A stretch of 30,095 bases of DNA from NCBI GenBank assembly GCA_017882655.1, contig JADGPB010000001.1, forward strand, positions 1 to 30,095, given 5' to 3'. Under the pieces are notes generated by a model that saw only the letters and a program-made list of their open reading frames with translations, was not told the origin of the DNA and ran no database searches. The first letter of the stretch is position 1. Every line of letters begins with the position of its first letter. This DNA comes from Propionibacteriales bacterium. GTDB taxonomy: Bacteria > Actinomycetota > Actinomycetes > Propionibacteriales > Propionibacteriaceae. Made by a program: the position numbers and the translations under genes. This document shows, in pieces, positions 12,132-28,393 of this stretch.

Positions 12132-13523
12132 GTGACCACTCCTGCGACCGAGGACCTCGCGCGCGTCACGGTGATCTCGCCGAGCCGGCGGATCGACGTC
12201 GCCCTGCCGGGGTCCACGAGCCTTGGTGAGTGCCTGCCGACGATCGTGAGGTTCTCCGGGTACGAGCCGGGCTCGACCCAGGAAGCCGTACACGCGTGGG
12301 TCCTGCAGCGGCTCGGCGAGGATCCGCTGGACCCGACGAAGCGCGTGTCGGCCCTCAACCTGCGCGACGGCGAGACGCTGCATCTGCGCTCGCGCGACAA
12401 CACGATCCCGGACGCCGCGTTCGACGACGTCGTCGACGCGGTCACCACGGCCACCACCACCCGTCCCTCCTGGACGCCGGCCCAGAGCCTGTGGTTCGGC
12501 GTCGTGACGATGGTCGCGCTGCTGCTCGCGATCCCCGTGGCCCTGCTGGTCACCACGACGGACACGAGCCCGCTCGCCCAGAACCTCGAGACCGTCGCGA
12601 CGCTGTTCTTGTCCGTGGCGGCGATGGTCGGCTCGATCGTGCTGTCACGCGCGTTCGGGCGGTTCCTGCCGGCGGCCGGCCTGGCATGGGCCGCGACCGT
12701 ACTGGCTGTGGTCGGCGGGCTGTACATCATGCCGGGCGAGACCTGGCCGCTACGGGTCCTGCTGGCGTCGGCGTGCGGGATCGTCGCGTCCGGTACGGCG
12801 TGGCTGGCGGCACGCATCCAGCCGTACGCGCACCTTGCGATCACCTTGAGCGCCAGCGTCACGCTCGTCGCGACGATGGTGATGGTGCTGCTCGGCGGCT
12901 ACGCCGCGCAGGTCTCGGCCGTCACCATCGCGCTCCTGCTGGCGCTGACCCCGACGCTGCCGATGCTCTCGTACCACGCCGCCCGCGTCGCCATGCCCAA
13001 CCTCCCGGCGAACGCGCAGCTGCTGATGGAGGACGAGACGCCGGTACAGACCGACATCGTCGGCCGGGCGCTCACCGCCGATCGCGTCCTCGGCTCCTTC
13101 CTCGGCGCGACTGGCATCACGGTGGGACTAGGGATGATCCCGGTGCTGCTCACCGGTACGTGGCTGGCCCTGGCGCTCACCGCGGCGGTCGGCCTGGCGC
13201 TCGTGCTGCGCGCACGCGTCTTCGTCGGACGCGTCCAGCGCTTCGCGCTCCTGATGCCTGGCACCCTCTTCGGGCTGGCGTCCGTACTGCTGTTCCTGCT
13301 CGCGCTGCCCAGCGTCGCCCGCATCCCGATCGGCCTCACGATCGCGCTGATCGCCACCGTCGCGCTCGCCGGCTACACCGCGAGCATGTACAACCAGATC
13401 CTCGCCCCCATCTGGGGCAGGCTGGGGGATGTACTCGAGTGGCTCGCCCTCATCGCCGTCATCCCTCTGGTCCTCGGCGTCCTCGGCACGTACACCTGGG
13501 TCATGAGCCTCACCGCCCACTGA
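12132..13523 (+). CDS. eccD: T7SS integral membrane protein EccD
   Basis: N-terminal ubiquitin-like YukD domain (RVTVISPSRRIDVALP…LRDGETLHL), DDVVDAV linker, then about 11 hydrophobic helices ending …LEWLALIAVIPL. Alternative start ATG at 12102. Confidence 0.9.
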   Translation: MTTPATEDLARVTVISPSRRIDVALPGSTSLGECLPTIVRFSGYEPGSTQEAVHAWVLQRLGEDPLDPTKRVSALNLRDGETLHLRSRDNTIPDAAFDDVVDAVTTATTTRPSWTPAQSLWFGVVTMVALLLAIPVALLVTTTDTSPLAQNLETVATLFLSVAAMVGSIVLSRAFGRFLPAAGLAWAATVLAVVGGLYIMPGETWPLRVLLASACGIVASGTAWLAARIQPYAHLAITLSASVTLVATMVMVLLGGYAAQVSAVTIALLLALTPTLPMLSYHAARVAMPNLPANAQLLMEDETPVQTDIVGRALTADRVLGSFLGATGITVGLGMIPVLLTGTWLALALTAAVGLALVLRARVFVGRVQRFALLMPGTLFGLASVLLFLLALPSVARIPIGLTIALIATVALAGYTASMYNQILAPIWGRLGDVLEWLALIAVIPLVLGVLGTYTWVMSLTAH

Positions 13524-13541: not shown

Positions 13542-14546
13542 TCACTCTGGGCAGCCGCAACTTCCGCGAATGACGACTTCGCAGGTCAACGTCATCGACT
13601 CTCGGGGAGCACCGCCGGTGGTGATTCTCTCGTGCAGCCGTTGGGCCAACAGCGAAGCAAGCTCCCGGATGGGCTGCCGGACGGTGGTGAGTCCAGGCAT
13701 TGTGTACCGGGCGAGCATGATGTCGTCGAACCCGGTGATCAGGATGTCGTCCGGGCAGCGCAGCCCCCGACGCCACAAGGCCTTCATCACTGACATCGCC
13801 AACTCATCGTTGGCGCACACCAGCGCGTCGCAGCGGTTCGCCTCGGCGAGCACCTCGTCGACCACCTGCAGGCCGAACCTCTCGACCGCCGGCACCTTGA
13901 AGGCCGCCATCGGGACATCCAACCCCGCCTCCATCACCGCCTCCAGGTACGCCGCGTACCGCTGCCGGACATCGCGGGTCTCCGAGATGCCCACGAAGCG
14001 CGGACGTCTGACCCCGTGCCCGATCAGATGCTGGACGAGTTCGCCTGTCGGCTCCCCGTTCTCGACTCCGATCGAGTCGCAGCCGGGGATCGGACTACGT
14101 CCGGTCACTACTACCGGGACGCGGGACGCAACGAATGCCACCACCTCGTCCGGCACGGTCAAGTGCGTGATCACCACGCCGTCGACCATGCCGGAGAGGT
14201 TCACGACCCGTTCGATCAGGCGCCCCGGTTCAGTGTCTGCCACGACCGGGCGCACGCTCACCCCGTTCTGCGCCGCTACGGACAGGTAGCTCGCCAGCAA
14301 CTCGGCGTAGTAGGGGCCGATCACAGCGGGCGTCACGAAGCCGTGGGTCTCCTGGCGCAGCTGATTCGCCCGGCCCCGAAACGGGCTGTAGTCGAGCTGC
14401 CCCACTGCCTTCAAGACACGCTGGCGCGTCGCCTCCGACGCTGGCGCGGACCCTTGCAGGACGCGCGACACGGACGAGATCGACACCCCGGCGAGTTTGG
14501 CCACCGTGTAGATGGTGGCCGGCCTTTGCTCTTCATCCTGGGGCAC
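13542..14546 (-). CDS. LacI-family transcriptional regulator
   Basis: TIYTVAKLAGVSISSVSRVL HTH, hinge LDYSP, sugar-binding domain with CANDELA, ITGFDDI and LTTVRQP. Confidence 0.95.
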   Translation of the reverse strand: MPQDEEQRPATIYTVAKLAGVSISSVSRVLQGSAPASEATRQRVLKAVGQLDYSPFRGRANQLRQETHGFVTPAVIGPYYAELLASYLSVAAQNGVSVRPVVADTEPGRLIERVVNLSGMVDGVVITHLTVPDEVVAFVASRVPVVVTGRSPIPGCDSIGVENGEPTGELVQHLIGHGVRRPRFVGISETRDVRQRYAAYLEAVMEAGLDVPMAAFKVPAVERFGLQVVDEVLAEANRCDALVCANDELAMSVMKALWRRGLRCPDDILITGFDDIMLARYTMPGLTTVRQPIRELASLLAQRLHERITTGGAPRESMTLTCEVVIRGSCGCPE

Positions 14547-14552
14547 TGACTC

Positions 14553-14558
14553 AGTTTA
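14553..14558 (-). promoter_or_regulatory. Putative -10 box (TAAACT) for a leaderless lacI-family transcript
   Basis: TANNNT 6 nt upstream of the GTG start with no SD sequence. An adjacent TGAAACTA half-site (14561-14568, minus strand) resembles the motif at 20500-20579. Confidence 0.5.
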
Positions 14559-14624
14559 CGTAGTTTCATGATCGAGAGTGTGTTTGTGCCTGAACCCGCG
14601 TGGGCCAGCGAAGGACGGGAGGAC

Positions 14625-16574
14625 TCAGGCCAGGGCCTCGGCAAATGGGTTCGGGATGGCTTCAACGAGCCGCCTCGTGTACTCGTCCTTAGGGTTGCGG
14701 ATGACGTCGATGGCCTCGCCCCGTTCCACGATCTCTCCGTTGTTGAGCACGATCACTTCGTCCGCAAGCATGCGCGCGCTGAGCAGGTCGTGGGTGATGT
14801 AGAGGATGCCTACGTCAGAGTCCTGCACGAGCTTGTGCAGCAGTTTCAGGATCTCCGCGCGGATCGAAACGTCGAGGCTCGAGATCGGTTCGTCAGCGAT
14901 CACCAGCTCGGGCTGGGCAGCGAGCGCCCGCGCGATCACGACACGTTGGCGCTGCCCGCCGGACAGTTCGAAACCGTAGCGTCCGCGGTACTGTCCCGGC
15001 GGAGTGAGTGCGACTGCCTCGAGGAGTGAGTCGATCTCGGCGCGCAACTGCTTGCCGCGCATCTTCCGGTGGTTCTTCAGAGGCCTCGAGAGGATGTACT
15101 CGAGGGTCTTGTTCGGGTTCAGCGAGCTGTACGGGTCCTGGAAGACCATCTGGACGAGCTTCCGGAAGCGTGCCAGGTCAGCGCCACCCAAGCCTCCGAC
15201 GTTGAGCGGCCCGCTCTTGGAGTGGAAGACGATCTCCCCCGATGTCGGGCGCTCCACCCCCGTGATCATCTTCGCGATCGTCGACTTTCCCGAACCGGAC
15301 TGACCAACCAGCGCAGTCACCATGCCGCGGCGCAACTCGAAGCTGACACCCTTGATGACCTCGTTCTCCTCGATCCTGAGGCCGCGCCGGGTCCGGAAGG
15401 TCTTGGTGACGTCCTTCACCTGGAGGAAGACCTCGTTGGACAGCGCCTCCTCCGTCTCCCCTACGGACTTCACGAACTCAGGCCCTTGGAAACGGCGCGT
15501 TTTCGGTGGCAAACCGGGTGTGTCCGGCGCTTCGCGCTGCAGGTGGGCGACGTGGCACGCCACCCGCTGCAGCACCTCGGGGGGTCTCTCGGACTCTGCC
15601 TCAGCGCTGGTGGTCTCGGGTGCCACCGTGACTTCGGCCGCCGCTGGCGCGATCGTCAGCAGCCCTGGCTCGACGCTCAGGCAGCGTTCGATCTTCTCAG
15701 GGCAGCGCGGGGCGAACAGACAGCCCTGGTGCTCGCGGGACAGGTCCGGCGGACGCCCGGGCACGTAGGTGATTCGGACGGTCTCGTTGCGCGGGTCGGC
15801 GTAAGACCCCAGCAGCCCCTTCGAGTAGGGGTGCAGCGGGTCGCGGAGGAGCGCACGCGTCTTGTTCTCCTCGACGATCCGGCCGGCATACATCACAAGG
15901 ATCCGGTCGGACATGTCGAGGACCGTGCCGATGTCGTGGCTGATGAACAGCACCGCGAAGCCTTGTTCGCGTTGGAGTCGCCGCACGTTCTCGAGGATCG
16001 AACGCTGGACGACGACGTCGAGGCCGGTCGTGGGCTCGTCCAGCAGGACGAACTTCGGGTCGTTGGCCAGCGCCAGAGCGAGGTTGACCCGCTGCTTCAT
16101 GCCGCCGGACAACTCGTGGGGGTATGCGTTGATGAAGCGGTGGTCGATCATTACCAGGTCGAAGAGCTCCTTGATGCGATCGACAACAGCACCCTTGCGC
16201 AGCGTGCTGTGGAGTTCGATGGCGTCCCGGAACTGCGGCTCGACTCGGGCGACGGGGTTGAGCGCGTTCATCGAGCTCTGGAAGACAGTTGAGATGTCGC
16301 GCCACCGGTATGGCCGCAGCTCCTCCTGGCTCATCGTCGTGATGTCCATGCCGGCGAACACGATCTGGCCGGCAGCGATCCGTCCTGGTCGCTCGGTGAG
16401 ACGAAGGATCGCGTTCGCGAGTGTCGACTTGCCCGAGCCGGACTCGCCGATGAGTCCCACGAACTCCCCAGGGTCGATCGTGAATGAGACGTCTTCGACC
16501 GCGTTGAGCGCGGCGTGCAGTTTGGGTTCGTAGCGCACGGTGAGGTTCTTCACCTCGAGCAGCGGAGCGGGCAT
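14625..16574 (-). CDS. Fused double ABC ATPase (DppD/DppF-like) of an Opp/Dpp-type importer
   Basis: Two NBDs: GESGSGKS…LSGGMKQR…LLDEPTT and GQSGSGKS…LSGGQRQR…IADEPIS; HPYSKGLL and a CLFAPRC…C…CH C-terminal extension. Confidence 0.93.
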   Translation of the reverse strand: MPAPLLEVKNLTVRYEPKLHAALNAVEDVSFTIDPGEFVGLIGESGSGKSTLANAILRLTERPGRIAAGQIVFAGMDITTMSQEELRPYRWRDISTVFQSSMNALNPVARVEPQFRDAIELHSTLRKGAVVDRIKELFDLVMIDHRFINAYPHELSGGMKQRVNLALALANDPKFVLLDEPTTGLDVVVQRSILENVRRLQREQGFAVLFISHDIGTVLDMSDRILVMYAGRIVEENKTRALLRDPLHPYSKGLLGSYADPRNETVRITYVPGRPPDLSREHQGCLFAPRCPEKIERCLSVEPGLLTIAPAAAEVTVAPETTSAEAESERPPEVLQRVACHVAHLQREAPDTPGLPPKTRRFQGPEFVKSVGETEEALSNEVFLQVKDVTKTFRTRRGLRIEENEVIKGVSFELRRGMVTALVGQSGSGKSTIAKMITGVERPTSGEIVFHSKSGPLNVGGLGGADLARFRKLVQMVFQDPYSSLNPNKTLEYILSRPLKNHRKMRGKQLRAEIDSLLEAVALTPPGQYRGRYGFELSGGQRQRVVIARALAAQPELVIADEPISSLDVSIRAEILKLLHKLVQDSDVGILYITHDLLSARMLADEVIVLNNGEIVERGEAIDVIRNPKDEYTRRLVEAIPNPFAEALA

Positions 16575-16575
16575 G

Positions 16576-17544
16576 CTAGGCGTCCTCTCGCAGGTGCGGG
16601 TTGCTGATGAGGTCGATGCCGAAGTTGATCAGGGTCAGCGCCATGACCAGGCCAGAGAGGACCAGGCCCGGCAGGAGCAGCCAGATCCACAGGCCCTGGG
16701 CGAGCGCGCCCTGTAGCTGGGCCTGGTACAGCATGGTCCCCCACGACACCGACTCCGTGTTGCCGAGGCCGAGGAAGGAGAGGCCTGCCTCCGCCCCGAT
16801 GGCGCCGGTGGCGGCACCGAAGAAGCCCGCCGCCACCAAGGACATCATCTGAGGCAATATCTCTCGGAAGATGATCGTGAAGGTGTTGTCGCCGGCGAAC
16901 TTGGCGGCTGTCACGAAGTCACGGTTCCGCAGGGTGATGATCTGTGCCCGCTTCCCGCGGGCCGGGCCGGCCCAACTGATGATTCCGATGATCAGGATGG
17001 TGAACCAGATGCTGCGCACCTCGGAGTAGGCCATCAGGGTGATGATGAGCGGCAACGTCGGGACGACGAGTGCGACGTTGGTGAAGAACGACAGCACGTC
17101 ATCCACCCAGGTGCCTTCGAGATACCCCGACACCAGGCCTATGAGGAGAGCGACCGTTGTTGCGAACAGGCCGCCGAACAGGCCGACGGTGAGCGACACG
17201 CGTGTGCCCCAGATCAGCTGGCTGAGGATGTCGGCGCCCTGGGTCGTTGTGCCGAGAAGGTGCGCCGAGCTGGACAGCTCGACGGGGTTGAATGTCAGGT
17301 TGTCGGCCCGGTACGGCGCGATCCACGGAGCGAAGACCGCAAGGAGGATGTACAGGCCGAGCAGGATCACGCCGCAGCGCGCCTTCTTCGACGACCAGAT
17401 CACCTGCCACCAGGCCGGGCCCATGGACTCGATCTCATCGATCTGAGCTTCTGCGCTTATGAGAAGACCTGGGTCGTCACTCATAGTGCTCGGCGGTGAG
17501 GAATCGATTCCCTCGACGGGCACGAGTGGTTGCGTGGGTGTCAC
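16576..17544 (-). CDS. ABC transporter permease (DppC/OppC-like)
   Basis: HLLGTTTQGADILSQLIWGTRVSL, FVTAAKFAG (EAA-like loop), LSFLGLG, SWG; GTGA overlap with the upstream permease. Confidence 0.92.
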   Translation of the reverse strand: MTPTQPLVPVEGIDSSPPSTMSDDPGLLISAEAQIDEIESMGPAWWQVIWSSKKARCGVILLGLYILLAVFAPWIAPYRADNLTFNPVELSSSAHLLGTTTQGADILSQLIWGTRVSLTVGLFGGLFATTVALLIGLVSGYLEGTWVDDVLSFFTNVALVVPTLPLIITLMAYSEVRSIWFTILIIGIISWAGPARGKRAQIITLRNRDFVTAAKFAGDNTFTIIFREILPQMMSLVAAGFFGAATGAIGAEAGLSFLGLGNTESVSWGTMLYQAQLQGALAQGLWIWLLLPGLVLSGLVMALTLINFGIDLISNPHLREDA

Positions 17545-18530
17545 GAACTCGCCTTCCTCGCGCGCGGGTCGAGAACGCCGTAAAGCATGTCCGCGATGAG
17601 GTTCGCGAGCAGCGTTCCGACGATGGTGAACAGCAGGAGGGCCTGCAGAAGCGGATAGTCCTTGCTCGTGGCGGCCTGACCCATGATGCGGCCCAGGCCG
17701 GGGTAGTCGAAGGTCTGCTCGATGAGCAGTTGCCCCCCGAGGATGCCGCCCAGCGCCATAGCGAAGCCGGTGATCGACGGCAGCAGGGCGTTGCGAGCGG
17801 CGTAGCGCAGGGCGACCTGCCGGTCGGGGACGCCCTTGGCCTTGGCCAGACGGATGTAGTCCTCGCCGAGGTTCATGATCATGGTGTTTCGCATCCCCAG
17901 GATCCAGCCGATGGGCGTCAGCAACAACAACACCGCCGCTGGGAGGACGGAGTGGTAGACAGCGTCGGCGAGAAACTGAGCGTTCAGGCCAGGGGTTGAG
18001 GCGTCGTAGCCGCCCGACGTGGGGAACCAGCCGAGAATATAGCCAAATGCGAACAACAGCAGCAGTGCGATCCAGAAGGCCTGCAGGGTCCCGATGAATG
18101 TTGAGCCCAGGGTCACGACAGAATCGAATACCGAGTTCCGCTTCCAGGCGGCCAGGGCGCCGAGAACCATGCCGACCACGAATGACAGCAGCATCGTGAC
18201 TCCGACGAGGATCAGCGTCCAGGGCAGCGCCTTCATGATGACAGTGGTCACCGGCGTCGGGAAGTAGGTGTACGAGACACCGAAATCGCCTCGGAGCAGC
18301 TGCTTGATGTAGGCGATGTACTGGTCGAACAGGGTCCCCCCTGGCGCACCGAGCATGGCGCGCATCGCCCGGATCTTGTCCGGGTCAAGCTCGGCGTCCT
18401 TGCCCGCGAGCTTCTTGATCATCATCTCGGCGGGGTCGCCGGGCTGAAGGCGCGGGATCAGGAAGTTGAGCGTGACCGCCGCCCAGAGGGTGAGCAGGAA
18501 GTACCCGACTCGGCGGGCGAAGTAGCGCAT
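17541..18530 (-). CDS. ABC transporter permease (DppB/OppB-like)
   Basis: MRYFARR…PGDPA, GDFGVSY, DYIRLAKAKG, IEQTFDYPGLG, KDYPLLQ. ATG at 18530 has an RBS (ORF track extends to 18623). Confidence 0.92.
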   Translation of the reverse strand: MRYFARRVGYFLLTLWAAVTLNFLIPRLQPGDPAEMMIKKLAGKDAELDPDKIRAMRAMLGAPGGTLFDQYIAYIKQLLRGDFGVSYTYFPTPVTTVIMKALPWTLILVGVTMLLSFVVGMVLGALAAWKRNSVFDSVVTLGSTFIGTLQAFWIALLLLFAFGYILGWFPTSGGYDASTPGLNAQFLADAVYHSVLPAAVLLLLTPIGWILGMRNTMIMNLGEDYIRLAKAKGVPDRQVALRYAARNALLPSITGFAMALGGILGGQLLIEQTFDYPGLGRIMGQAATSKDYPLLQALLLFTIVGTLLANLIADMLYGVLDPRARKASS

Positions 18531-18641
18531 CGTCAACCCTTTCCGGCCGTCAACGGCACCCGAGCTGAGGCGTCTTGCGGCGTTCTGGTGGGAATGCATC
18601 CGGCCGGAGCCGGGGAGCCGCAAGAGAGCGCGGCCCGGGTG

Positions 18642-18674
18642 GCGGGGCGCCGCCGGAGGAAATCGGCGCCCCGC
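18642..18674. terminator. 11-bp perfect stem-loop between the SBP and permease genes (mRNA stabiliser or partial terminator)
   Basis: GCGGGGCGCCG (18642-18652) and CGGCGCCCCGC (18664-18674) are exact reverse complements with an 11-nt loop. There is no U-tract. Confidence 0.6.
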
Positions 18675-18697
18675 GTGGGGGATTCAGCTCGGCGCGC

Positions 18698-20395
18698 TCA
18701 CTTGGCCGACTTCAGTCGCGTCATGATCATCAGCATCTCTGAGTTGGTCGCGTACGGGTCGGCCTCGCTGGGCCAACCCACCGCCTTGTCAGTGCGGTAG
18801 ATCATGCGGGCCGGCGCGTAGAACAGCGGTGTCACCGGGGCCTGTGTGACCATGACGTCGACCAGTTGGCCCACGAGCGACTTCTGCTCGGCCGGATCCG
18901 TGGAGCCCGACAGCTTCGTGACAATCGCATCCGTCGCAGGGTTGCTGTACCTACCGACGTTGGAGCGTACCTCGGTCTTCGTCGGGAACAGGCCGCTCGA
19001 CAGCTTCGCACCGAGGTTGCGGGCGACCTCGCAGCCGCCGTTCAGGTACTCGATCAACGCGTCGAAGTTGCCGCTCTTCTTCTGCAGGTCGACGGCGTCC
19101 GGCGGGCTGGTGATGAGCTTGGCGTCCAGCTTCATCTCTTTCAGGTTGCGGACGATGATGTCGGCGGCGCCCTGGTAGTCGATCCAGCCGGCCTGCACCG
19201 AGAAGGTCACCGGCATTGCCTTGCCGTCCTTGGTGGTCCGGAAACCGTCGCTGCCGACGGCGTATCCTGCAGCGTCCAGCATCTGGTTGGCTTTGGCGGT
19301 GTCATATTTCAGCACCGTGTCGGTGTTGGCCATGGCGTCGGGTAGCAGCGCCTTTGCGTATGGCAGCTTCAAGCCTGTTTGCGACGCGACACCCATGACG
19401 CCGTAGGTGGCCTTCTGGGTCATCTGCTCTTTGTCGAACCCTTGGCTGACGGCCACCCGGAATGCGGAGTCGTTCCATGGCGCCTTCGTCAGATTCGGGG
19501 TGAAGACGGTGCTGCCGGCCGGGGCGTACCAGAAATGGTTCAGTTCCGGATCCTTGGCCTGGAAGGAGTTGGCTGGATTTGGAATCTCGCCCCAGTACGC
19601 GTCCAGCTGGCCCGACGTCAGCTTCAGGGCGGCATTGGTTGCGTCGAAATTGCCCGCAAGGACCAGGTGGTTGATCTTCACCTTGTCTGCCTGCCAGTAA
19701 TCCTCGCGGCGATCCAGGACGAGTTTCCGTCCATTGTACGAGCCGACCTTGAAGGGGCCGGTGCCGACGGGCTTCGTGTCGACGTATTTCGACGGATCGC
19801 CGACGCTGCTCCACACATGTTGGGGCACGATCTTGGCGGTGATCAAGCTGTCGAACTTGGCGGCGGCATTACCGGTGAAGTCGATGACGACCTTGTTGCC
19901 GTCGACAATGACGGATTTGGCGCTGCCGCCAAAGGTGTCGCTCCACAGGCCGATGTCGTCCAGCGCGGGATACTGCTTCTTCATGTTGAGCGTGAACGCC
20001 ACGTCCTCCGCCGTCAGTGGCTGGCCGTCCGACCACTTGACGCCATCGCGGATCGTGAAGGAGAGCTTGGTCGGACCGTCCCACTTGTAGTCGGTGGCAA
20101 GCCACGGAACGACCTGACAGTTCATGGAACTGCGGATCATCAGCGGCTCATAGAAGTACGTCTTCGACGTCGAGCTCGGCGACCAAGGATTGTAGTTCTC
20201 GATGCCGGCGACGTTGTCCGCCACCTCGGCGGGCAACGTCAGCTGCTCGATCATGTTCTCGGTGCCGTTCCGGTTCACTGATCCGGACGCGGCCGGGCCA
20301 GCATTGCTCTGGGTAGCCACTTTGCCGGAGCAGGCGCCGAGGGTGAGCGCACCGGACAAGACAAGAGCGGCCGCGAGCGTCCATCTGCTCTTCAT
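18698..20395 (-). CDS. Family 5 (Opp/Dpp-type) ABC solute-binding lipoprotein, probably oligosaccharide-binding
   Basis: Lipobox LTLGA-C; PWLAT…W, GVKWSDGQPLTAEDVAFT, PVGTGPF, FRVAVSQGFDK. ATG at 20395 has an AAGGAG RBS. The sugar substrate is inferred from neighbouring GH genes and the LacI gene. Confidence 0.9.
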   Translation of the reverse strand: MKSRWTLAAALVLSGALTLGACSGKVATQSNAGPAASGSVNRNGTENMIEQLTLPAEVADNVAGIENYNPWSPSSTSKTYFYEPLMIRSSMNCQVVPWLATDYKWDGPTKLSFTIRDGVKWSDGQPLTAEDVAFTLNMKKQYPALDDIGLWSDTFGGSAKSVIVDGNKVVIDFTGNAAAKFDSLITAKIVPQHVWSSVGDPSKYVDTKPVGTGPFKVGSYNGRKLVLDRREDYWQADKVKINHLVLAGNFDATNAALKLTSGQLDAYWGEIPNPANSFQAKDPELNHFWYAPAGSTVFTPNLTKAPWNDSAFRVAVSQGFDKEQMTQKATYGVMGVASQTGLKLPYAKALLPDAMANTDTVLKYDTAKANQMLDAAGYAVGSDGFRTTKDGKAMPVTFSVQAGWIDYQGAADIIVRNLKEMKLDAKLITSPPDAVDLQKKSGNFDALIEYLNGGCEVARNLGAKLSSGLFPTKTEVRSNVGRYSNPATDAIVTKLSGSTDPAEQKSLVGQLVDVMVTQAPVTPLFYAPARMIYRTDKAVGWPSEADPYATNSEMLMIMTRLKSAK

Positions 20396-20499
20396 TGAAA
20401 CATTCTCCTTCTCAACCCTCGTCATTGGGGGGGAGGATCCCGAGGGCCCTTGGGCACAGAGTATGGCCGGCGGGACCCAATGGCTAGGCATTCTGGCCC

Positions 20500-20579
20500 T
20501 GAAAGAACTTTCTGTGCGGCGCGGAACTATTTCCACAAATGGGTGAAACTGGTTCCTCAGCAGGCCTGGCCTGGTTTCC
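20500..20579. promoter_or_regulatory. Four degenerate palindromic sites at exact 22-bp spacing (putative LacI-type operators)
   Basis: TGAAAG-AA-CTTTCT (20500), CGGAAC-TA-TTTCCA (20522), TGAAAC-TG-GTTCCT (20544), CTGGCC-TG-GTTTCC (20566), in the divergent SBP/GH94 intergenic region. Confidence 0.5.
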
Positions 20580-20606
20580 ACGAGAAGCCAGTGCTAGACA
20601 TGGGAC

Positions 20607-23600
20607 GTGCTCCAATCATCCAGCCGCGTGTTACGACCACCCTTGGAACTGACCTCGGGGGATGCCCATGCTGAGTTCACCTCAGCAATGTCACCGACGC
20701 GTTTCGACGTAGCTGGCCTGAGCATGATTCTTTACCCTGCCAGCCATTTCGAGGCTGGGCTGACCGGGCTGTACCTCCGGCCGCGGGAGAGCGGCGCCCC
20801 CGCTGTCCCGATGCTCGGCCCGGCATCAGAAGGAACAACGTCGATGGCGGGTGACGCCATCGTGCGTCGCGGGCGCCACGGCGCCTTGGAGTGGAGCGTC
20901 GAGTTCTCCTTCGGCCCCGGCGGCCACGACTGGCGTTGGCAGGTCGGGCTGCACAACCGGTCAGGGAAGGCCTTGGCGTGCGATCTGGTCGCAACGCAGG
21001 ATTTCGCACTGGCACCCTACGAAGTGGTCAGAACCAACGAGTACTTCGTAAGTCAGTACTTGGATCTATCCGTCATCAGCGATCCCGAGTTCGGCAACGC
21101 TGTCGCCGTCCGGCAGAACATGCCGGGCGATCGTCAGCCTTGGGCGGTCCTCGGCTCTCTGGGCCGCGGTATGGGCTGGGCGACTGATGCGCTACAGCTA
21201 CGGACGCTGCGGAACGGACGACCGGTCCTGGACGTGTCGCACCTCCCGTCCAGGCGCCTTCAGCACGAGCACACGCTAGCCGCTCTGGCTTCCGACGAAC
21301 TGAACGTCGGCCCTGGTGAAACGGTCTTCGCTGGCTTCTTCGGTGCCTTCGTCGAAGACCACCCGGACGCCACTGGCCCCGCGGACGCCGACCTGGTCCG
21401 GCGGGTGCACGCCGCATCACGGGAGCGGGCCCGAGGTGAGGCGTCACCGGATGACGCCGGCGAACCGGGCAGAGGCGACGCGAGCGCCCCCGAGACCGAC
21501 AAGGGTGTTCCGCGAGGGACCATCTTCGACTCCCCCGTGGCACCCGCGTCCCCTCTGTCGGACGCGATCGCGGAACGCTGGTTCCCAGGCAGCCGAGACC
21601 TCGTCGAGATCGCACCCGACGGGTCGGCGTGGGCGTTCCGGACGGAGTCCGGCGAGCACGTCACGGCACGGGAGAAGGAGTTGTCGGTCCTGCGCCCGCA
21701 CGGCCAGATCCTTCGGACGGGCGACGGGATCACCCCCGAGGCGGGCACACTCACCTCGACGATCTGGATGCGGGGCGTCTTTGCGTCCCAGGTCACCGCG
21801 GGGCACGTGAGCCTTGGCGGGTTGGTTTCCGGCGACCGCACCTACCTCGGTCTGCAGGACGCTCACGGTCTGCGCGCCTTCGTGCGGCGAGCCGGCGCTT
21901 GGGAACTGCTGGACGTCCCGACCGCCTGGACGCTCGGGCTCGATGGTGCGCGATGGCTGTACGACCTGGCCGGCTCCGAGGTGGAGGTCGCCACCAGGGC
22001 CTGTGTGGACGCCCACCGCCTTGAGTTCACGATCCGCACCGTCGGCGACATCGACCTCATACTGCTGGCCGTTCAGCTGGCGCTCGGCGCCGACGACGGA
22101 CAGACGCCCGAACGCGTCACCATCGAGGGCAGCGGCCCGGTTGTCGCCGCATCCGGAGGCGGACGCATCCTGCGCCTGGATTTCGGCGACCGGGACGTCG
22201 AGTACGGCGGCGACGAGCTTCTGTTCGCCGATGGCGAGAGCCGCGACCTGCCCTGGCTGTGCTGCGCTCTCGACGCCCCCGGCGAAACGGCATTCTCTCT
22301 CACCTCCGGGGTGGCCGCGGCGGACGCCGGGCCCGAGCCGTTACGGCAGCCCGCCCTGTGGTCCGAGCTGCGCGCCGGGCTCGGCCTGGCCGGAACCGCC
22401 CGCGACGAGAACGTCGTCACCTTGGACGCGATCCTTCCCTGGTTCGCCCACGACGCCCTGATCCACTACCTGTCGCCGCGCGGACTCGAGCAGTACACCG
22501 GCGGCGCCTGGGGCACCCGCGACGTCTGTCAAGGCCCGGTGGGCCTGCTCACCGCTCACGCGCACGACGACGCGCTACGCGACGTCCTGCTGCGGGTCTT
22601 CCGCGACCAGAACGCGCGCGGGGACTGGCCGCAGGCCTTCGACTACCTGCCCCCCGACGGCGAGATCGGGCAGCGGGACGCCCACGGCGACGTCGTCTAT
22701 TGGCCCCTGCTCGCCCTGGGCGACTACCTACTCACCACCGGCGACACCGCGCTGCTGGCCGAGGAGCTGCCCAGCCGCGGCGACGGCGCCCGGACGCCAC
22801 CGGCGCCGATCGCGGAGCACGTACACCGGGCTATCGAGCACATCGAGTCGACCCTCGTCCACTCCACACCGCTGCCTGCGTACGGCCACGGCGACTGGAA
22901 CGACTCGCTGCAGCCGGCCGACCCCAAGCTGGCCTCGCACATGGTCTCCACCTGGACAGCCACCCTGCAGTCCCAGGCGCTCAGCCGGCTGGCACAAGGC
23001 CTCGCCGCCGCCCGCGCGGAGCCCGAGCTCGGCGCGCGCTGCGCCGAGCTGGCGGCCGCCACGCGCGCATCCCTCGGCGAGCTGCTGCTCGCCGACGGCG
23101 TCCTGTCCGGATACGCGGTGTTCGACCAGGACCCAACCACGCCGGAACTGCTTGTGCACCCGCGAGACCACCGGACCGGACTCACGTACGGCGTCCTTCC
23201 CTGGGTCCACGCCATCGCGGGGGATCTAGTCTCCCCCGAGCGGGCGCGCCATCACCTCGACCTGTTGCACGCCCACCTGTGGGGTCCCGACGGCGCCCGC
23301 CTGTTCGACAAGCCGCCGGTCTATCGCGGCGGCCCGATGGAGGTGTTCAAGCGCGCGGAGGCGGCGACGTTCTGGGGCCGGGAGATCGGCCTGATGTACA
23401 CCCACGCCCATCTGCGCTACTGCGAGGCGCTCGGCCGGGTCGGCGACGCGCAACGGCTCTGGGACGGCCTGCTGCTCGCCGTCCCGCTCGGACTGAGTGA
23501 TCGGGTACCGGTGACGCGCCCACGCCAGACCACCTGCTACTACTCCAGCTCTGACGCGGTCTTCGCCGACCGGGTTCAGGCTGGGGAGCAGTACGCCGAC

Positions 23601-23963
23601 ATTGCCCGCGGCGCGGTGCCGCTGGAGGGGGGCTGGCGCGTCTATTCGTCGGGCCCAGGGTTGTTCCTGCGGCTCGTCGTCGAGTGCCTGTTGGGCGTCC
23701 GGCGCCGGTCGGACGCTGTGGAGGTCGACCCCGTCCTGGCCCCCAGCCTGGACGGCCTCGAGGCCCGAGTGCCCTACCCGGGCGGCCCGCTGACCCTGCG
23801 GTACGCGGTGCGCGGTCCCGGCCACGGTGTGCGGTCGGTGCGAGTGGACGGCGTCGACGTCCAGACAACCCCCCTGATCAACCCCTACCGGACGCCCGGT
23901 GTCGCGGTTGCGAGCAGCGCGCTCCGCCCGGGGTCCGTAGTGGACGTGGAAGTGGGGCGATGA
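20607..23963 (+). CDS. GH94 glycoside phosphorylase, 1,2-beta-oligoglucan phosphorylase (SOGP)-like
   Basis: About 1,118 aa; SPRGLEQYTGGAWGTRDVCQGP, YGHGDWNDSLQP (GH94 catalytic Asp motif), FWGREIGLMYTHAHLRY, GWRVYSSGPG. The size and motifs fit my recollection of the Listeria Lin1839/Cphy_0694 SOGP group rather than ~800-aa cellobiose phosphorylases. The start is uncertain (20607 or 20628). Confidence 0.8.
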   Translation: MLQSSSRVLRPPLELTSGDAHAEFTSAMSPTRFDVAGLSMILYPASHFEAGLTGLYLRPRESGAPAVPMLGPASEGTTSMAGDAIVRRGRHGALEWSVEFSFGPGGHDWRWQVGLHNRSGKALACDLVATQDFALAPYEVVRTNEYFVSQYLDLSVISDPEFGNAVAVRQNMPGDRQPWAVLGSLGRGMGWATDALQLRTLRNGRPVLDVSHLPSRRLQHEHTLAALASDELNVGPGETVFAGFFGAFVEDHPDATGPADADLVRRVHAASRERARGEASPDDAGEPGRGDASAPETDKGVPRGTIFDSPVAPASPLSDAIAERWFPGSRDLVEIAPDGSAWAFRTESGEHVTAREKELSVLRPHGQILRTGDGITPEAGTLTSTIWMRGVFASQVTAGHVSLGGLVSGDRTYLGLQDAHGLRAFVRRAGAWELLDVPTAWTLGLDGARWLYDLAGSEVEVATRACVDAHRLEFTIRTVGDIDLILLAVQLALGADDGQTPERVTIEGSGPVVAASGGGRILRLDFGDRDVEYGGDELLFADGESRDLPWLCCALDAPGETAFSLTSGVAAADAGPEPLRQPALWSELRAGLGLAGTARDENVVTLDAILPWFAHDALIHYLSPRGLEQYTGGAWGTRDVCQGPVGLLTAHAHDDALRDVLLRVFRDQNARGDWPQAFDYLPPDGEIGQRDAHGDVVYWPLLALGDYLLTTGDTALLAEELPSRGDGARTPPAPIAEHVHRAIEHIESTLVHSTPLPAYGHGDWNDSLQPADPKLASHMVSTWTATLQSQALSRLAQGLAAARAEPELGARCAELAAATRASLGELLLADGVLSGYAVFDQDPTTPELLVHPRDHRTGLTYGVLPWVHAIAGDLVSPERARHHLDLLHAHLWGPDGARLFDKPPVYRGGPMEVFKRAEAATFWGREIGLMYTHAHLRYCEALGRVGDAQRLWDGLLLAVPLGLSDRVPVTRPRQTTCYYSSSDAVFADRVQAGEQYADIARGAVPLEGGWRVYSSGPGLFLRLVVECLLGVRRRSDAVEVDPVLAPSLDGLEARVPYPGGPLTLRYAVRGPGHGVRSVRVDGVDVQTTPLINPYRTPGVAVASSALRPGSVVDVEVGR

Positions 23964-24057
23964 GCCGCCCAGACGATCGTCCCTGGCTGGTCGTGGTCGG
24001 CGACCGGAGTGGTTCAACTCATTGACCACGGGTCACCGACAGGACGGAGGACGGACG

Positions 24058-26400
24058 ATGATTGAGGTCTCGAAGCGTCGGCTGCTCGTGGACGGCCGGC
24101 CCCGGATCGTACTGGCGGGCGAGTTGCACTACTTCCGCGTCCCGCGTGCCGAATGGGAGCAGCGCCTCGAGTTGGCCGTCGAGATCGGATGCGACACGAT
24201 CGCGAGCTATATCCCATGGCTGTTCCACGAGCTGCCCGACGGGGCGATCGACGTCGCTGGCGCCAGCGCGCCGGAGCGGGACGTAGGGGCGTTCATCGAC
24301 CTGTGCGGCGCCCACGGGTTGTCCTTCCTCGCCCGGCCGGGGCCGTTTGTGATGGCCGAACTGAAGAACGAGGGTCTGCCCTTCCGGCTGTATGCCGAGC
24401 ACCCGGAGATCATGCCGTCCGGCTGGGACGGCCGCCCCGCACCCACGGCCACGGTGGACTACCTCGCGCCCGCGTACCTGGACGAGTGCGACCGCTGGTA
24501 CGGCGCCATCATGCCGCTGCTGGCAACCCGGCTGGCGACACGCGGTGGACCGGTGACGGCTGTCCAGCTCGACAACGAGGTGGGCATGCTGGCCTGGGTC
24601 TCGAACTCTCCCGACCTGACGCCGCAGGCGCTGCGCGAGCTTCGAGGCTGGATCCGAGAGCACCGGGCTGGCGCCGCGAGCGTCTACCCCATGATCGACG
24701 CGGCGGACCAGACGTGGGCGGACGCCGTGCGCACGCCTCGGGAGCAGTGGGCGGGGGCGCTACGGATCGACCTGTCCCGATTCATGCGGTGGCGATTCGC
24801 CAGCTACATCGAGCACCTGCGGGCGCGCGCCGAGTCGCTCGGGGTGACAGGTGTGCCGTTCTGCATCAACATCCATGGCACGTCCGACGGCGGCGGCGAG
24901 TCCTTCGGCATCGGAATCAGCCAGCTCGTCGACGCCTATGCCGGTGTCTCGGGGATGCTGTCGGGCTCGGACCACTACGTGGGGAACCTCACCCTCGACA
25001 CCTACACCGATCTGTACGTGATGAACGCGCAGCAGGCTGCAGTTCACGGCGCCGACCAGCCGGTGACCTCACTGGAGTTCGAGGCCGGAACCGGCGACTA
25101 CGGCGGCGGGTTCGACCTACAGTACGAGCCCTCCACAATCGACCTGAAGACACGGCTGCACGTCGCGCAGGGCGTGCGGTTGTTCAACTACTACCTGCTG
25201 GCCGGCGGCATCAACCCGCCACTGGACGTAGCGGTTCACGACGGCAATGACCGGCTCAGCTTCACCGGCGAGCGCCACGGCACCGCCGCGCCGATCGGTC
25301 CCGAGGGCCAACGCGGCGACACGTTCACAGCGACGCGCAAGGTCATTCGTGCGATCCGCGCCGCGGAACCCTGGCTCGCAGACGCCGACCAGGAGCTCGA
25401 CGACTTGAGCCTGGGCCTCATCCTGGACGCCTACGCCACCGAGTACACCCATCCGGACAGCGCGGCAATGGTGGGCGCTGCAGCGGACCTCCACCTGCAC
25501 CGTGGAGCCGGCGAGCGCCGAGCCTTGGCCAAGTCGGCGTTGATGCTGGGCTACCGGTTCGACGCCACTCATCTCGAACGGTCGGCGGTCCGCGTCGGCA
25601 CCGATGGTCGTCCGGCCTGCCTGCTGGTCGCGACAGCCCGCCACATGGACGAGGCCGTACAGCAGCGCTTGGTCGACCATGTGGCGGCCGGCGGGTCGCT
25701 GGTGGCGCTCGGCCCGGTGCCGGAGGTGGATCTGTCCGGTGCAGTGTGCGCTGTGCTCGCCGAGGCACTCGGACTGCGTCCGGGGCCGGTGCTCGCCGAC
25801 GGACCCCACAGCTACCCGAGCGTCATCGCCCACGGCTGGGCCGCTCCGTTCCCGGAGACCCGGGTGGGCTGGCGGCAGTCGCTGGACGGCTCAGCCGGGC
25901 AGATGGTCCTCACCGATGTGGGGGGCACGGTGTGCGGCGTCGAGGCGACACACGGCCTCGGACGGGCCGTCGTGCTCGCTGCCGCTCTCCCCAGCAGCCC
26001 CATCCTGTTCGGACGAGTCCTCGATCGGCTCGGCGTGCGTCGCGGGCTCGAGCTCACGGCATCCGTCCCGGGCGTATTCGCGACCACGACGCGAGATGGC
26101 GCCGGCAACCGGCTGCTGCACGTGATCAACATCTCCGGCTACCGACCCGACGTCTCGATCAGGGTGGCGGGCGTCGACCGCGAGCTGAGGCTGCGTCCCG
26201 CGCCACACGCCGGGTACATGTTGCCGCTGGGTGTCGAACTCGGGCAAGCGCGTCTGGCTTGGGCGAATGCGGAACTGCTTGCCGTCTCGGGCGGCCAGGT
26301 GCGCTTCGGACCGCCTGCCGGGGACGTTCTCGAGGTTGAGTGGGATGGCAGCCGCCCCACCCTTCCCATTGTTCGTGGGCCCATCGCCGACCAAGGCTGA
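24058..26400 (+). CDS. GH35 (clan GH-A) glycosidase/transglycosidase, possibly a beta-1,2-glucosyltransferase
   Basis: GELHYFRVP, YIPWLFHE, ARPGPFVMAE, VQLDNEVG (acid/base E174), TSLEFEAG (nucleophile E340 or E342), FNYYL, followed by a trimerisation-like domain. ATG at 24058 has a GGAGG RBS. The default annotation would be beta-galactosidase. Confidence 0.8.
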   Translation: MIEVSKRRLLVDGRPRIVLAGELHYFRVPRAEWEQRLELAVEIGCDTIASYIPWLFHELPDGAIDVAGASAPERDVGAFIDLCGAHGLSFLARPGPFVMAELKNEGLPFRLYAEHPEIMPSGWDGRPAPTATVDYLAPAYLDECDRWYGAIMPLLATRLATRGGPVTAVQLDNEVGMLAWVSNSPDLTPQALRELRGWIREHRAGAASVYPMIDAADQTWADAVRTPREQWAGALRIDLSRFMRWRFASYIEHLRARAESLGVTGVPFCINIHGTSDGGGESFGIGISQLVDAYAGVSGMLSGSDHYVGNLTLDTYTDLYVMNAQQAAVHGADQPVTSLEFEAGTGDYGGGFDLQYEPSTIDLKTRLHVAQGVRLFNYYLLAGGINPPLDVAVHDGNDRLSFTGERHGTAAPIGPEGQRGDTFTATRKVIRAIRAAEPWLADADQELDDLSLGLILDAYATEYTHPDSAAMVGAAADLHLHRGAGERRALAKSALMLGYRFDATHLERSAVRVGTDGRPACLLVATARHMDEAVQQRLVDHVAAGGSLVALGPVPEVDLSGAVCAVLAEALGLRPGPVLADGPHSYPSVIAHGWAAPFPETRVGWRQSLDGSAGQMVLTDVGGTVCGVEATHGLGRAVVLAAALPSSPILFGRVLDRLGVRRGLELTASVPGVFATTTRDGAGNRLLHVINISGYRPDVSIRVAGVDRELRLRPAPHAGYMLPLGVELGQARLAWANAELLAVSGGQVRFGPPAGDVLEVEWDGSRPTLPIVRGPIADQG

Positions 26401-26426: not shown

Positions 26427-27089
26427 CTACCTCGGGCCGAACAACAACCCGTACTCGGTCGGTGTCGGGGGGATCGCGACGCGGTTCACCCGGCGCGGCA
26501 TGCAGAGGGCGACCTCGTTGGCCTCGAGGTTGTTCGTGAGGCGGAGCTGGCGGGGGTTGAGGGCGTACGCGCGGCGGAGGTTGTCGGTCGTCTTCGCGTC
26601 GCACGGTGATGCGAGCGCCATGTCGCACGAGCGCAGGAGGTGGATCGCGCCGGAGTGCGAGGCGTCGGCGGTCATCATCACCGCTTGCCAGGGGCCCAAA
26701 GCCACCGTCGTACCGTCGAAGTCGGCGGCATCGTCGATCACGAGGCTCGGCCGGTACGGGCGGCCCTGGCTCGGCAGGGCATCGTTCGGCTCGAGGAAGT
26801 CGAGCGTGCCGCCGCACCGGATCACGGCTCCTGCGAGCCCCTGCCAGCGCCGACGCTCGTTGGCGATGATCGACAGGTGCGCGCCGAGCGAGATGCAGCG
26901 GAACGCGAGGAGCCACGTCACGTAGTCCGGTACGGCGAGCAGCAGGCGGGTCGGATTGGGCCGGAACAGCCGGATCGTGATCGGGCTGCTACGACCATGG
27001 CCGAGCAGCAGGCCCGACGGCCCCGTACGTACCACCGTCTCCTGCCGTGCCGAGCCGTCCTCGACCTCAGGCAGCACCCACTGGCTCAT
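26427..27089 (-). CDS. Hypothetical protein (220 aa) translationally coupled to eccE; T7SS-associated
   Basis: Begins MSQWVLPEV at ATG 27089 (ATGA overlap with the eccE stop, GAGG RBS). No TM segment. Contains GLLLG…PITIRLFRP, SLVIDD and GPWQAV. The ORF-track extension to 27401 is spurious. Confidence 0.8.
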   Translation of the reverse strand: MSQWVLPEVEDGSARQETVVRTGPSGLLLGHGRSSPITIRLFRPNPTRLLLAVPDYVTWLLAFRCISLGAHLSIIANERRRWQGLAGAVIRCGGTLDFLEPNDALPSQGRPYRPSLVIDDAADFDGTTVALGPWQAVMMTADASHSGAIHLLRSCDMALASPCDAKTTDNLRRAYALNPRQLRLTNNLEANEVALCMPRRVNRVAIPPTPTEYGLLFGPR

Positions 27090-28249
27090 CGCCCACCTCG
27101 TCCCAGCGGCACGGTGGCCAGCATCGTCGGCACCTGCGCGCCCCCGGGGGAGTCGAGCCGTACGGACGTACCGAGCCGCTCGACGGTGTGGTCCATCGCC
27201 GACTGCGCACCCGCGGCGTCGATCGTGACCAGCCGCAGGCCGCCGGTGGAACGGGCATGCGGCGTGAACGTGTACGAGGTGACGGCGAACAGCACCGGCG
27301 CGTCGGCGATCGCGTCCTGGACCAGCTGGTAGCCGATCGAGGCGTTCGTGCCCCAGCGGCGGATCATGCGGCCGGTGTGTACGAGGCCGTCGCAGGTCCA
27401 CGTCGTCCAGTCCTCGGCGGAGCGGCGTTCGCCGTTCTCAGGCCCCGATCCGGCGACCAGGCTCAGCACCTCGTACAGCTCCATCGGCGCCAAGGCACGG
27501 GTGACGATTCCTTGTCGCTTGAGCACCGTCTGCACCCGGTGCAACCCGAACCGCAACGTCGCGTAGACCCCCTCGTTGCTCGCTCCCCTCCGCGCCACCG
27601 CTTCCAGGCACAGCCTCGGGTCGAGGCGCAGGCACAGCCACGTACGACGCATCGTCGGCGGCGGTGCCTCCGAGGTGATCTCGCGGTACGCGGCCGCGGC
27701 GACGGAGTTCTCGCCCAGCAGCACGGTCGTCGGCGCCGGCACGGTGTAGGTGACGATCTGCACGCCGGCGAAGATGATGTCGTCCTGGCGGGTGAGGCCG
27801 CTCAACGCGTCGAGGTCTATGGCCTCGCCCTTGTCGGCGAGCAGCTCGTCGTCCGAAGCGAGCGCCAGCACAGCGGTCCACGCCTCCCCATCCGCGATCA
27901 GCCCAAGCTCGCCGCCACGGCCCAGAGACGTCTGCGCCACTGTGAGGCCCGGCATCCACTCGGCGAGCGGTACGAGGTCGGCGGGCAGCTCGGCGGGGAT
28001 CTTGGTCGACGGCGAGCGGCGCGCGTAGCCCACCCATCGCCGCAGCCACCCGATCGCCGGGTGCCCCTTGAACGGGATGGCGAGGCCGATGATGAGGATC
28101 GCGAGCAGCCCGGCCCAGAGGTACTGACGGGACAGAGCGAGCAGTACGACACCGAGCAGGGCGATCTCGATGACGATCGCCCAGGTCATGGCGAGCCGTG
28201 GCGCCGCCGCGCGAGGAGGAAGGACGATGTCCTGATCGCCGCGTGCCAT
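27086..28249 (-). CDS. eccE: T7SS membrane protein EccE
   Basis: Two N-terminal TM helices, then GLIADGEAWTAVL, RRTWLCLRLDP and QVPTMLATVPLG typical of EccE. ATG at 28249 has a GGAGGGAG RBS. Confidence 0.85.
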   Translation of the reverse strand: MARGDQDIVLPPRAAAPRLAMTWAIVIEIALLGVVLLALSRQYLWAGLLAILIIGLAIPFKGHPAIGWLRRWVGYARRSPSTKIPAELPADLVPLAEWMPGLTVAQTSLGRGGELGLIADGEAWTAVLALASDDELLADKGEAIDLDALSGLTRQDDIIFAGVQIVTYTVPAPTTVLLGENSVAAAAYREITSEAPPPTMRRTWLCLRLDPRLCLEAVARRGASNEGVYATLRFGLHRVQTVLKRQGIVTRALAPMELYEVLSLVAGSGPENGERRSAEDWTTWTCDGLVHTGRMIRRWGTNASIGYQLVQDAIADAPVLFAVTSYTFTPHARSTGGLRLVTIDAAGAQSAMDHTVERLGTSVRLDSPGGAQVPTMLATVPLGRGGR

Positions 28250-28393
28250 GGGCCCGCTCCCTCCCGCGCCGTCAGCCGACGCCCCGCGCCACACTCTGCC
28301 AGACGAGTGGGGCGATCCGGGGTGCCAGACGACGACCGGGTGGCCCTTCGCCTGCCACAATGGCCGTGTTTTCGTACCCCGTCAGGAGCGGAC

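Follow-up and report, generated by a model that had tools for sequence, protein, structure and literature searches.

A candidate cassette for beta-1,2-glucooligosaccharide use with an SOGP-type phosphorylase and an IaSGT-like GH35 enzyme in a Propionibacteriales genome

Beta-1,2-glucans serve many Gram-negative bacteria in signalling and osmoprotection, and their consumption by other microbes is only now becoming clear. We describe here a cassette of 12.9 kb from a Propionibacteriales bacterium, located at positions 13542-26400 of the window, i.e., the whole stretch of 30,095 nucleotides that was analysed (contig JADGPB010000001.1 of assembly GCA_017882655.1). It combines a GH94 phosphorylase of the SOGP type with a GH35 enzyme, a LacI-family repressor and an ATP-binding cassette (ABC) importer. 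Its gene content points most likely to a LacI-controlled system that takes up beta-1,2-glucooligosaccharides (Sop-n, sophorose being Sop2), the presumed imported substrate, and breaks them down in the cytoplasm.

Several described systems resemble this cassette in part. The enzyme IaSGT (IALB_1185) of Ignavibacterium album (PDB 7VKW-7VL5, 7X87; PMC8861115) has three domains that are colinear with those of the window GH35 (template modelling score, TM, 0.87), and its gene neighbours an SOGP-like gene within a cluster that has no beta-glucosidase (PMC8861115), much like the cassette of the window. Unlike in I. album, the importer of the window is of the Opp type and has no Listeria-type binding protein, and the host is an actinobacterium. 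The SOGP of Lachnoclostridium phytofermentans and Listeria innocua (EC 2.4.1.333; 5H3Z; PMC5309861) shares the four-domain architecture of the window GH94. Both the Listeria cluster lin1838-1843 and the window have SOGP in an operon under LacI control, together with an ABC importer; the Listeria cluster, however, has a CUT1-class binding protein and a GH3 enzyme (Lin1840) and lacks GH35, whereas in the window the importer is Opp-type, GH3 is deleted and GH35 is present. In Chloroflexus aurantiacus the cluster Chy400_4165-4178 (FEBS J 2026, PMC13731917) unites a putative SOGP, an IaSGT homologue and GH3, as do the SOGP-GH3-GH35 relatives of our locus, while the lineage of the window has lost GH3 and carries a binding protein of family 5. 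Disproportionation has already been proposed as the role of the Chloroflexus GH35 enzyme, Chy400_4177, beside its putative SOGP (PMC13731917). The exo-beta-D-glucosaminidase TkGlmA of Thermococcus (PDB 5GSM) belongs to the same three-domain GH35 branch (Pfam GLMA_2nd, TM 0.79, 22% identity); as it is a hydrolase, the IaSGT/GlmA branch is not restricted to transferases. In contrast to TkGlmA, the window GH35 has Asn in place of D178 and stands in a glucan, not a chitin, context. The GH1 cluster of S. griseus (PMC12369401) was rejected as a model, being a different system (CUT1, GH1, GH193).

Within the literature searched, GH35 and SOGP are linked only for I. album (PMC8861115) and Chloroflexus (PMC13731917). 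The idea that a GH35 enzyme beside SOGP recycles sophorose (Chloroflexus) and the pairing of an SOGP-like gene with GH35 without a glucosidase (I. album) are hence already published. New are an uncharacterised actinobacterial GH35 clade with an acceptor-site signature of its own, its coupling to an Opp-type importer, the recurrent loss of GH3 with preserved intermediates, and a conserved candidate operator. The cassette comprises the following features:

13542-14546, minus strand: LacI-family repressor gene, the final gene of the importer operon (Pfam LacI and Peripla_BP_3)
14625-16574, minus strand: fused two-domain OppD/OppF-type ABC ATPase (Pfam ABC_tran twice, oligo_HPY)
16576-17544 and 17541-18623, minus strand: two ABC permease genes with a 4-base overlap (Pfam BPD_transp_1, OppC_N)
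18698-20395, minus strand: family-5 solute-binding lipoprotein, 565 aa (Pfam SBP_bac_5)
20500-20513, no strand: candidate LacI operator, the palindrome TGAAAGAACTTTCT, in the divergent promoter region
20607-23963, plus strand: GH94 phosphorylase (SOGP), 1118 aa (Pfam SOGP_N, SOGP_2nd, GH94, SOGP_4th)
23964-24057, plus strand: 94-base spacer between SOGP and GH35, where relatives have a GH3 beta-glucosidase gene (junction alignment with the related loci L013 and L014)
24058-26400, plus strand: GH35 of the IaSGT/GlmA branch, 780 aa (best solved match IaSGT, 7vkw)

The phosphorylase and the GH35 enzyme

By family the GH94 protein is an SOGP. The extra N-terminal beta-sandwich domain (Ndom1), which shapes the pocket of the monomeric enzyme and by which SOGPs are recognised, is present (Pfam SOGP_N, E 2.1e-46, aa 24-242), and the match to the L. 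phytofermentans enzyme (LpSOGP, 5h3z; E 5.8e-143, 481 bits; aligned aa 43-509 and 605-1103) is far stronger than that to cellobiose phosphorylases (about 40 bits, E about 1e-9). The original prediction, made from the sequence alone, had proposed an SOGP of 1,118 aa with the motifs GDWND and RGLEQYTGGAWGTRDVCQGP and not a member of the cellobiose or laminaribiose phosphorylases; both motifs are in place (aa 762-766 and 625-644, respectively), and the N-terminal domain together with the difference in bit scores sets the protein apart from those groups.

Residues mapped through a HMMER alignment from the LpSOGP structure paper (PMC5309861) are almost entirely retained. The catalytic acid D760 of LpSOGP corresponds to D766, within GDWND; R630, D631, W758 and E917 of subsite -1 correspond to R638, D639, W764 and E926, and Y922, H924, S1005 and S1006 of the phosphate site to Y931, H933, S1014 and S1015. 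At subsites +1/+2, R907, R916, Q621, D631, Y1004 and N138 are represented by R916, R925, Q629, D639, Y1013 and N144, and A626 of LpSOGP is retained as well. Differences among the mapped residues are restricted to Y141, which is Phe147 here, so that the hydrogen bond Y141-R907 of LpSOGP is gone, and to G623, which is Thr. The window enzyme is predicted to phosphorolyse Sop3 and longer oligomers but not sophorose.

The GH35 gene lies directly downstream of the GH94 gene on the same strand, the co-directional arrangement noted originally, and begins with ATG 24058, which follows the ribosome-binding site (RBS) GGAGGA; a start at TTG 24022 was rejected in favour of it. Like IaSGT, its product has no signal peptide. 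Its placement with respect to IaSGT, Chy400_4177 and GlmA relies on HMMER and Foldseek scores, these three standing outside the GH35 tree. As a single sequence it matches IaSGT (7vkw) with E 2e-48, and as a profile of 15 homologues with E 2.4e-73 and 251 bits, colinear over 630 residues. Archaeal glucosaminidases (GlmA) rank second, and beta-galactosidases follow well behind, with at most 107 bits for the clade profile, restricted to the first ~175 residues. The AlphaFold model (predicted local distance difference test, pLDDT, 83.7; predicted TM score, pTM, 0.89) agrees with this ranking: its top 12 Foldseek matches are all IaSGT chains (TM 0.87-0.88), with GlmA at 0.79. Sequence, profile and predicted fold thus place the protein securely in the IaSGT/GlmA branch, and the earlier proposal of an enzyme resembling IALB_1185 instead of a beta-galactosidase is borne out.

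Kobayashi 2022 (PMC8861115) names seven IaSGT residues as catalytic or as part of subsite -1, namely Y52, E102, N175, E176, N275, E343 and Y378. They correspond to Y51, E101, N173, E174, N271, E340 and Y379 in the window and are invariant in all 78 actinobacterial homologues aligned. The three glutamates had been numbered correctly beforehand as E101 (FVMAE, 24358), E174 (DNE, 24577) and E340 (SLEF, 25075), and align with E102, E176 and E343 of IaSGT. Asn173, within DNE, matches N175 of IaSGT and replaces the amino-group-binding Asp of GlmA (D178 in TkGlmA), which argues for glucose at subsite -1. Beyond this site, L100 of IaSGT is Met in the window GH35, and the clade has an invariant G-D-Y of its own after the nucleophile. 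We interpret the -1 site as probably glucose-specific and the enzyme as a beta-1,2-glucosyl transferase or else an exo-glucosidase.

Relatives of the locus and loss of the operon GH3

More than 1100 GH35 homologues are found at E <1e-20, and every named one is called 'beta-galactosidase', so that the mislabelling by automatic annotation suspected for GH35 is real. Among species-representative genomes, relatives are encoded on at least 561 stretches, while a phylum-wide sample of 400 genomes gave two weak N-terminal matches and no more. Even sampling being unsuited to so patchy a family, loci were retrieved by pattern and complemented by a survey of SOGP at the family level. Layout counts centred on GH35 refer to the best 80 loci, and the presence of GH3 per locus was scored by tblastn.

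SOGP adjoins GH35 in 51 of these 80 loci. The commonest layout is SOGP-GH3-GH35 (about 40 of 80), with overlapping stop and start codons, as exemplified by the locus L015 of Terrabacter lapilli (SOGP 4394-7792, GH3 7794-10004, GH35 10001-12331). Among solved structures the operon GH3 matches the unnamed GH3 5tf0 best; BT_3567 ranks third (E 6.5e-144) and Lin1840 reaches E 4e-125, these latter being the two known sophorose-preferring GH3 enzymes. The survey centred on SOGP covered the GTDB family of Terrabacter, where SOGP occurs in 53 of 301 genomes. It counts 46 SOGP loci with enough flank (the fetched loci plus L015, L073 and L084; one SOGP-GH3 locus at a contig end was excluded), distributed over 30 SOGP-GH3-GH35, five SOGP-GH3 only, four SOGP-GH35 only and seven with neither gene. 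The dominance of the three-gene form speaks against a simple redundancy of GH3 and GH35. The loci with SOGP and GH3 only are Listeria-like and consist of LacI, a CUT1 binding protein, two permeases, a GH144-like gene, SOGP and GH3. Two types of SOGP operon coexist in the Terrabacter family, one without GH35 (L095:931-12799) and one in which an Opp-type importer diverges from SOGP-GH3-GH35 (L015:1-12331).

The association of GH35 with its importer is closer than that with SOGP. An Opp-type importer adjoins GH35 in 64 of the 80 loci, and among SOGP loci the family-5 binding protein accompanies 30 of the 31 that have GH35 but 0 of the 13 that lack it; as the loci are interrelated, this is to be taken as a pattern rather than a statistic. 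GH35 therefore travels with the Opp-type importer and not with SOGP. In 26 of the 80 loci both SOGP and GH3 are missing beside GH35, which there mostly forms a LacI-ABC-GH35 unit; Streptomyces, Micromonospora and Actinopolymorpha are among the hosts. Ten genomes with such lone units were checked, and in all ten SOGP_N and the GH94 catalytic domain are absent genome-wide, while positive controls were detected. L074 of Actinopolymorpha pittospori and L086 of Streptomyces exemplify such units in genomes devoid of GH94. The GH35 enzymes of the lone units share the active-site residues of the window GH35, and the enzyme therefore needs no phosphorylase partner.

A GH39-family gene lies beside GH35 in 10 loci of a deep clade without SOGP (e.g., L071:269-2095, L078:5337-7211, L079:2140-3993 and 4149-5984, L090:1103-3001), and a single locus from Micromonospora additionally encodes a CUT1 binding protein and a GH144-like protein (Glycoamylase/DUF3131).

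The missing GH3 of the window is a lineage-specific secondary deletion from an SOGP-GH3-GH35 operon. In the GH35 tree the window and L013, neither of which has the operon GH3, form a pair, and the sister of this pair is L014 (support 100). In L014 an internally deleted GH3 remnant of 330 aa (L014:9012-10004) persists between SOGP and GH35, consisting of the start of the GH3 N-domain and the Fn3-like end with the middle gone, and L031 keeps a GH3 trace of 45 aa (about 9811-9945); these remnants give the direction of change as loss. A search of the window by tblastn with the operon GH3 of a relative revealed no trace. The state 'SOGP-GH35 without GH3' requires at least six changes on the GH35 tree, so that GH3 left the operon at least six times while SOGP and GH35 were kept. 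GH35 can decay as well, as in L132, where a truncated copy (about 6217-7333, 47% coverage) follows SOGP-GH3. Between the window and L013, both devoid of GH3, the ratio of nonsynonymous to synonymous substitution rates (dN/dS) is 0.17 for GH35 and 0.20 for SOGP, and both genes have therefore remained under purifying selection after the loss. Four isolate genomes whose operons lack GH3 were searched for an orthologue of the operon gene at other places; none was found, the best match being 36-45% identical. Cultured strains with GH3-less loci include Aestuariimicrobium soli (L039), Pedococcus bigeumensis S9.3A (L084) and Serinicoccus kebangsaanensis (L073). The genome G623 possesses two SOGP loci, L111 (identical to L031, with the GH3 trace) and L137 (an intact SOGP-GH3-GH35 operon), and this co-occurrence of a decayed and an intact copy suggests that duplication can precede the loss of GH3.

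Proposed glucosyl transfer and its alternatives

In maltodextrin breakdown by E. coli, the phosphorylase MalP fails on the shortest oligomer, MalQ rebuilds its substrate and frees glucose, and the glucosidase MalZ is dispensable. We propose a comparable division of labour here. Short Sop-n would be imported by the family-5 lipoprotein and the Opp-type ABC system, and SOGP would strip glucose units as glucose-1-phosphate down to sophorose, which it could not cleave. The retaining GH35 enzyme, with its putatively glucose-specific -1 site, would then take over sophorose, a task that in most relatives would be shared by GH35 and the GH3 encoded between SOGP and GH35. By transfer, two Sop2 would yield Sop3 and glucose, or more generally the oligomers would be disproportionated, and SOGP and GH35 together would convert Sop2 and inorganic phosphate into glucose and glucose-1-phosphate. 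GH35 would act as MalQ does with MalP, and the lost GH3 would be the counterpart of the dispensable MalZ. The likeness to MalP/MalQ/MalZ exists only if GH35 is a transferase; neither the folds nor the families are related, and the linkage there is alpha-1,4, so that it is an analogy and not a membership.

We favour glucosyl transfer, coupled to SOGP, as the main reaction of GH35, with a confidence that stays slightly below even but above that for hydrolysis. This preference is based on the nearest characterised enzyme, a pure transferase that disproportionates Sop2-5 without hydrolysis, and on the long-lived three-gene operon, which argues that GH3 and GH35 act differently, as do MalZ and MalQ beside MalP. 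The distance from IaSGT and GlmA is too great for sequence to tell transfer from hydrolysis.

Several observations weigh against transfer. The window GH35 is 22% identical to IaSGT overall and equally distant from the hydrolase GlmA (Foldseek). At the acceptor side, R349 of IaSGT, which is key to its +1 specificity and absent from many of its homologues (PMC8861115), is G346 here (of 78 homologues, 73 have Gly and 5 have Ala), W279 is T275, and the +2 contact Q106 is E105. An acceptor handling like that of IaSGT is consequently not secure for the window enzyme, and the caveat of the original prediction that the acceptor preference would have to differ from the I. album enzyme is well placed. 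The active-site loops 98-106, 178-183, 348-354 and 391-404 of the model (nt 24349-24375, 24589-24606, 25099-25119 and 25228-25269), which line the plus subsites, have pLDDT <50, and for this reason we did not use the model for conclusions on the acceptor site; in IaSGT the corresponding region is reported to be mobile. IaSGT itself is poor with Sop-n, with a Km of 120-300 mM for Sop2 and Sop3. Finally, the metagenome-assembled genome (MAG) from which the window derives carries nine GH3 matches and one GH1 match on other contigs, whose products could hydrolyse sophorose. The cell may therefore possess a hydrolase for the shortest oligomer, which a MalP/MalQ-like cycle without a glucosidase would lack. 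The original prediction had spoken of a route without beta-glucosidase and without hydrolysis; the absence of GH3 and GH1 is correct for the cassette, where the tblastn search finds nothing and the gap is a GH3 deletion, but the wider claim fails, since with these ten genes elsewhere breakdown without hydrolysis cannot be asserted. That the organism has no beta-glucosidase was likewise rejected. It is the lone GH35 units, the altered acceptor site and the poor Sop-n kinetics of IaSGT that limit our confidence in transfer.

Since GH35 follows the importer and occurs in lone units without GH94, a hydrolytic role is a serious rival to MalQ-like transfer, possible though in our estimate less probable. 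GH35 would then be an exo-beta-1,2-glucosidase (sophorase) that replaces GH3 and splits sophorose, perhaps also longer Sop-n or sophorosides, and no MalQ-like cycle would exist. A LacI-ABC-GH35 unit in a genome without GH94, as in all ten checked, is a complete catabolic unit only if GH35 frees a usable sugar; GlmA, the other characterised relative and equally distant, is a hydrolase, and the acceptor-holding R349, W279 and Q106 of IaSGT are not retained. Either gene can be lost from SOGP operons, with five to six SOGP-GH3-only and four SOGP-GH35-only loci, as would be expected if each disposes of sophorose. Hydrolysis is nevertheless foreign to the nearest characterised enzyme, IaSGT, and a plain duplicate of GH3 would hardly be expected to persist in a three-gene operon that is translationally coupled and dominates in many genera.

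Less likely still, and in our view improbable, is that GH35 glucosylates other glucosides from sophorose, yielding sophorosides, or acts on another imported beta-glucoside, while GH3 or GH1 enzymes elsewhere handle sophorose. The acceptors favoured by IaSGT are aryl and alkyl glucosides (PMC8861115), the positions of its hydrophobic pocket are still hydrophobic in the window GH35 (M99, M177, L178, V181), the genome offers nine GH3 genes and one GH1 gene, and GH35 is tied to the Opp-type importer and not to SOGP (see above). A repressor-controlled catabolic import operon would, however, be an odd home for biosynthetic glucosylation, and the clade as a whole is strongly linked to SOGP, GH3 and GH144 genes.

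The reading that the annotation would suggest, i.e., a cellobiose phosphorylase with a beta-galactosidase or exo-beta-glucosaminidase for lactose-like, cellodextrin or chitosan oligomers, draws on the source names of the homologues and on the Pfam families GH35 and GH94 but is highly improbable, as cellobiose phosphorylases reach about 40 bits versus 481 for SOGP and beta-galactosidases at most 107 versus 251 for IaSGT, Asn173 stands in place of the amino-group-binding Asp of GlmA, and the context in relatives is SOGP, GH144 and a GH3 matching both known sophorose-preferring enzymes; the three component assignments were rejected on the same figures and residue.

If glucosyl transfer is indeed the main reaction, a bolder proposal may be considered, which we regard as speculative and distinctly less probable than transfer as such. 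The actinobacterial GH35 clade might be a dedicated sophorose-disproportionating enzyme, whose altered acceptor site, with Gly for R349 followed by an invariant Asp-Tyr, takes Sop-n well. The SOGP-GH35 cycle would then be self-sufficient, with one ATP saved for each sophorose; this sufficiency would be reflected in the repeated loss of GH3, and the module of GH35 and Opp-type importer would open the use of the disaccharide, as MalQ does for maltose. The three-gene ancestor, the repeated loss of either helper, the lone units and the strict link to the Opp-type importer provide natural experiments on the role of GH35. Should efficient disproportionation of sophorose prove true, GH35 and SOGP would together lend themselves to the production of beta-1,2-glucan from sophorose, which is cheap; should the enzyme be a plain glucosidase, the finding shrinks to a re-annotation.

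Importer, candidate operator and genomic setting

The LacI gene and the ABC importer proposed near GH94 and GH35 are both present according to Pfam, the importer being of the Opp/Dpp class. LacI homologues flank the importer in related loci, and the ABC ATPase is syntenic in relatives with 52-85% identity. For the binding protein the start at ATG 20395, with RBS and lipobox MKSRWTLAAALVLSGALTLGAC, was preferred over GTG 20581, and the divergent promoter region is therefore about 210 bases long. The nearest solved structures are sugar-binding members of family 5 (chitooligosaccharide 6lzv/1zty, mannoside 4pfu, cellobiose 2o7i) and not peptide binders; the 565-aa lipoprotein is probably a binder of sophoro-oligosaccharides.

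The palindrome TGAAAGAACTTTCT at 20500-20513 is the sole match of its motif within the window and, from its position and recurrence, a good candidate for the LacI operator. With up to two mismatches, the motif TGAAAGnnCTTTCA is found in 33 of 45 intergenic regions between the binding-protein and SOGP genes (10.5 kb in total), and just 45 times across all 1.67 Mb of loci.

The source MAG comprises 2.9 Mb in 495 contigs, is about 80% complete and has Propionibacteriales MAGs as its nearest relatives; the window is its entire contig C203, with a G+C content of about 69%. The cassette is embedded in a type VII (ESX) secretion locus, with eccD on one side and a convergent eccE operon on the other, and its G+C content is 0.63-0.66 as compared to about 0.70 around it. 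None of the 80 related cassettes has Ecc genes nearby, and the insertion site is therefore peculiar to this lineage. The flanking features, assigned by Pfam except for the 220-aa frame, which has no Pfam match, are:

115-1059, minus strand: pyridoxal-phosphate (PLP)-dependent enzyme
1132-4332, minus strand: SNF2 helicase
4322-4966, minus strand: UPF0029 protein
4979-6532, minus strand: GT87-like protein
6529-7899, minus strand: mycosin
7896-12014, minus strand: EccC
12102-13523, plus strand: EccD
26427-27089, minus strand: unnamed open reading frame of 220 aa, directly downstream of eccE
27086-28360, minus strand: EccE
up to 29719, plus strand: EccB

Two genes of the MAG lie on short separate contigs. 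One encodes the GH1 beta-glucosidase (G000:C43:962-2320, minus strand), the other a GH144-like protein, possibly an endo-beta-1,2-glucanase, within an open frame of 653 aa (G000:C364:187-699, minus strand). The organism may be able to cut longer beta-1,2-glucans too.

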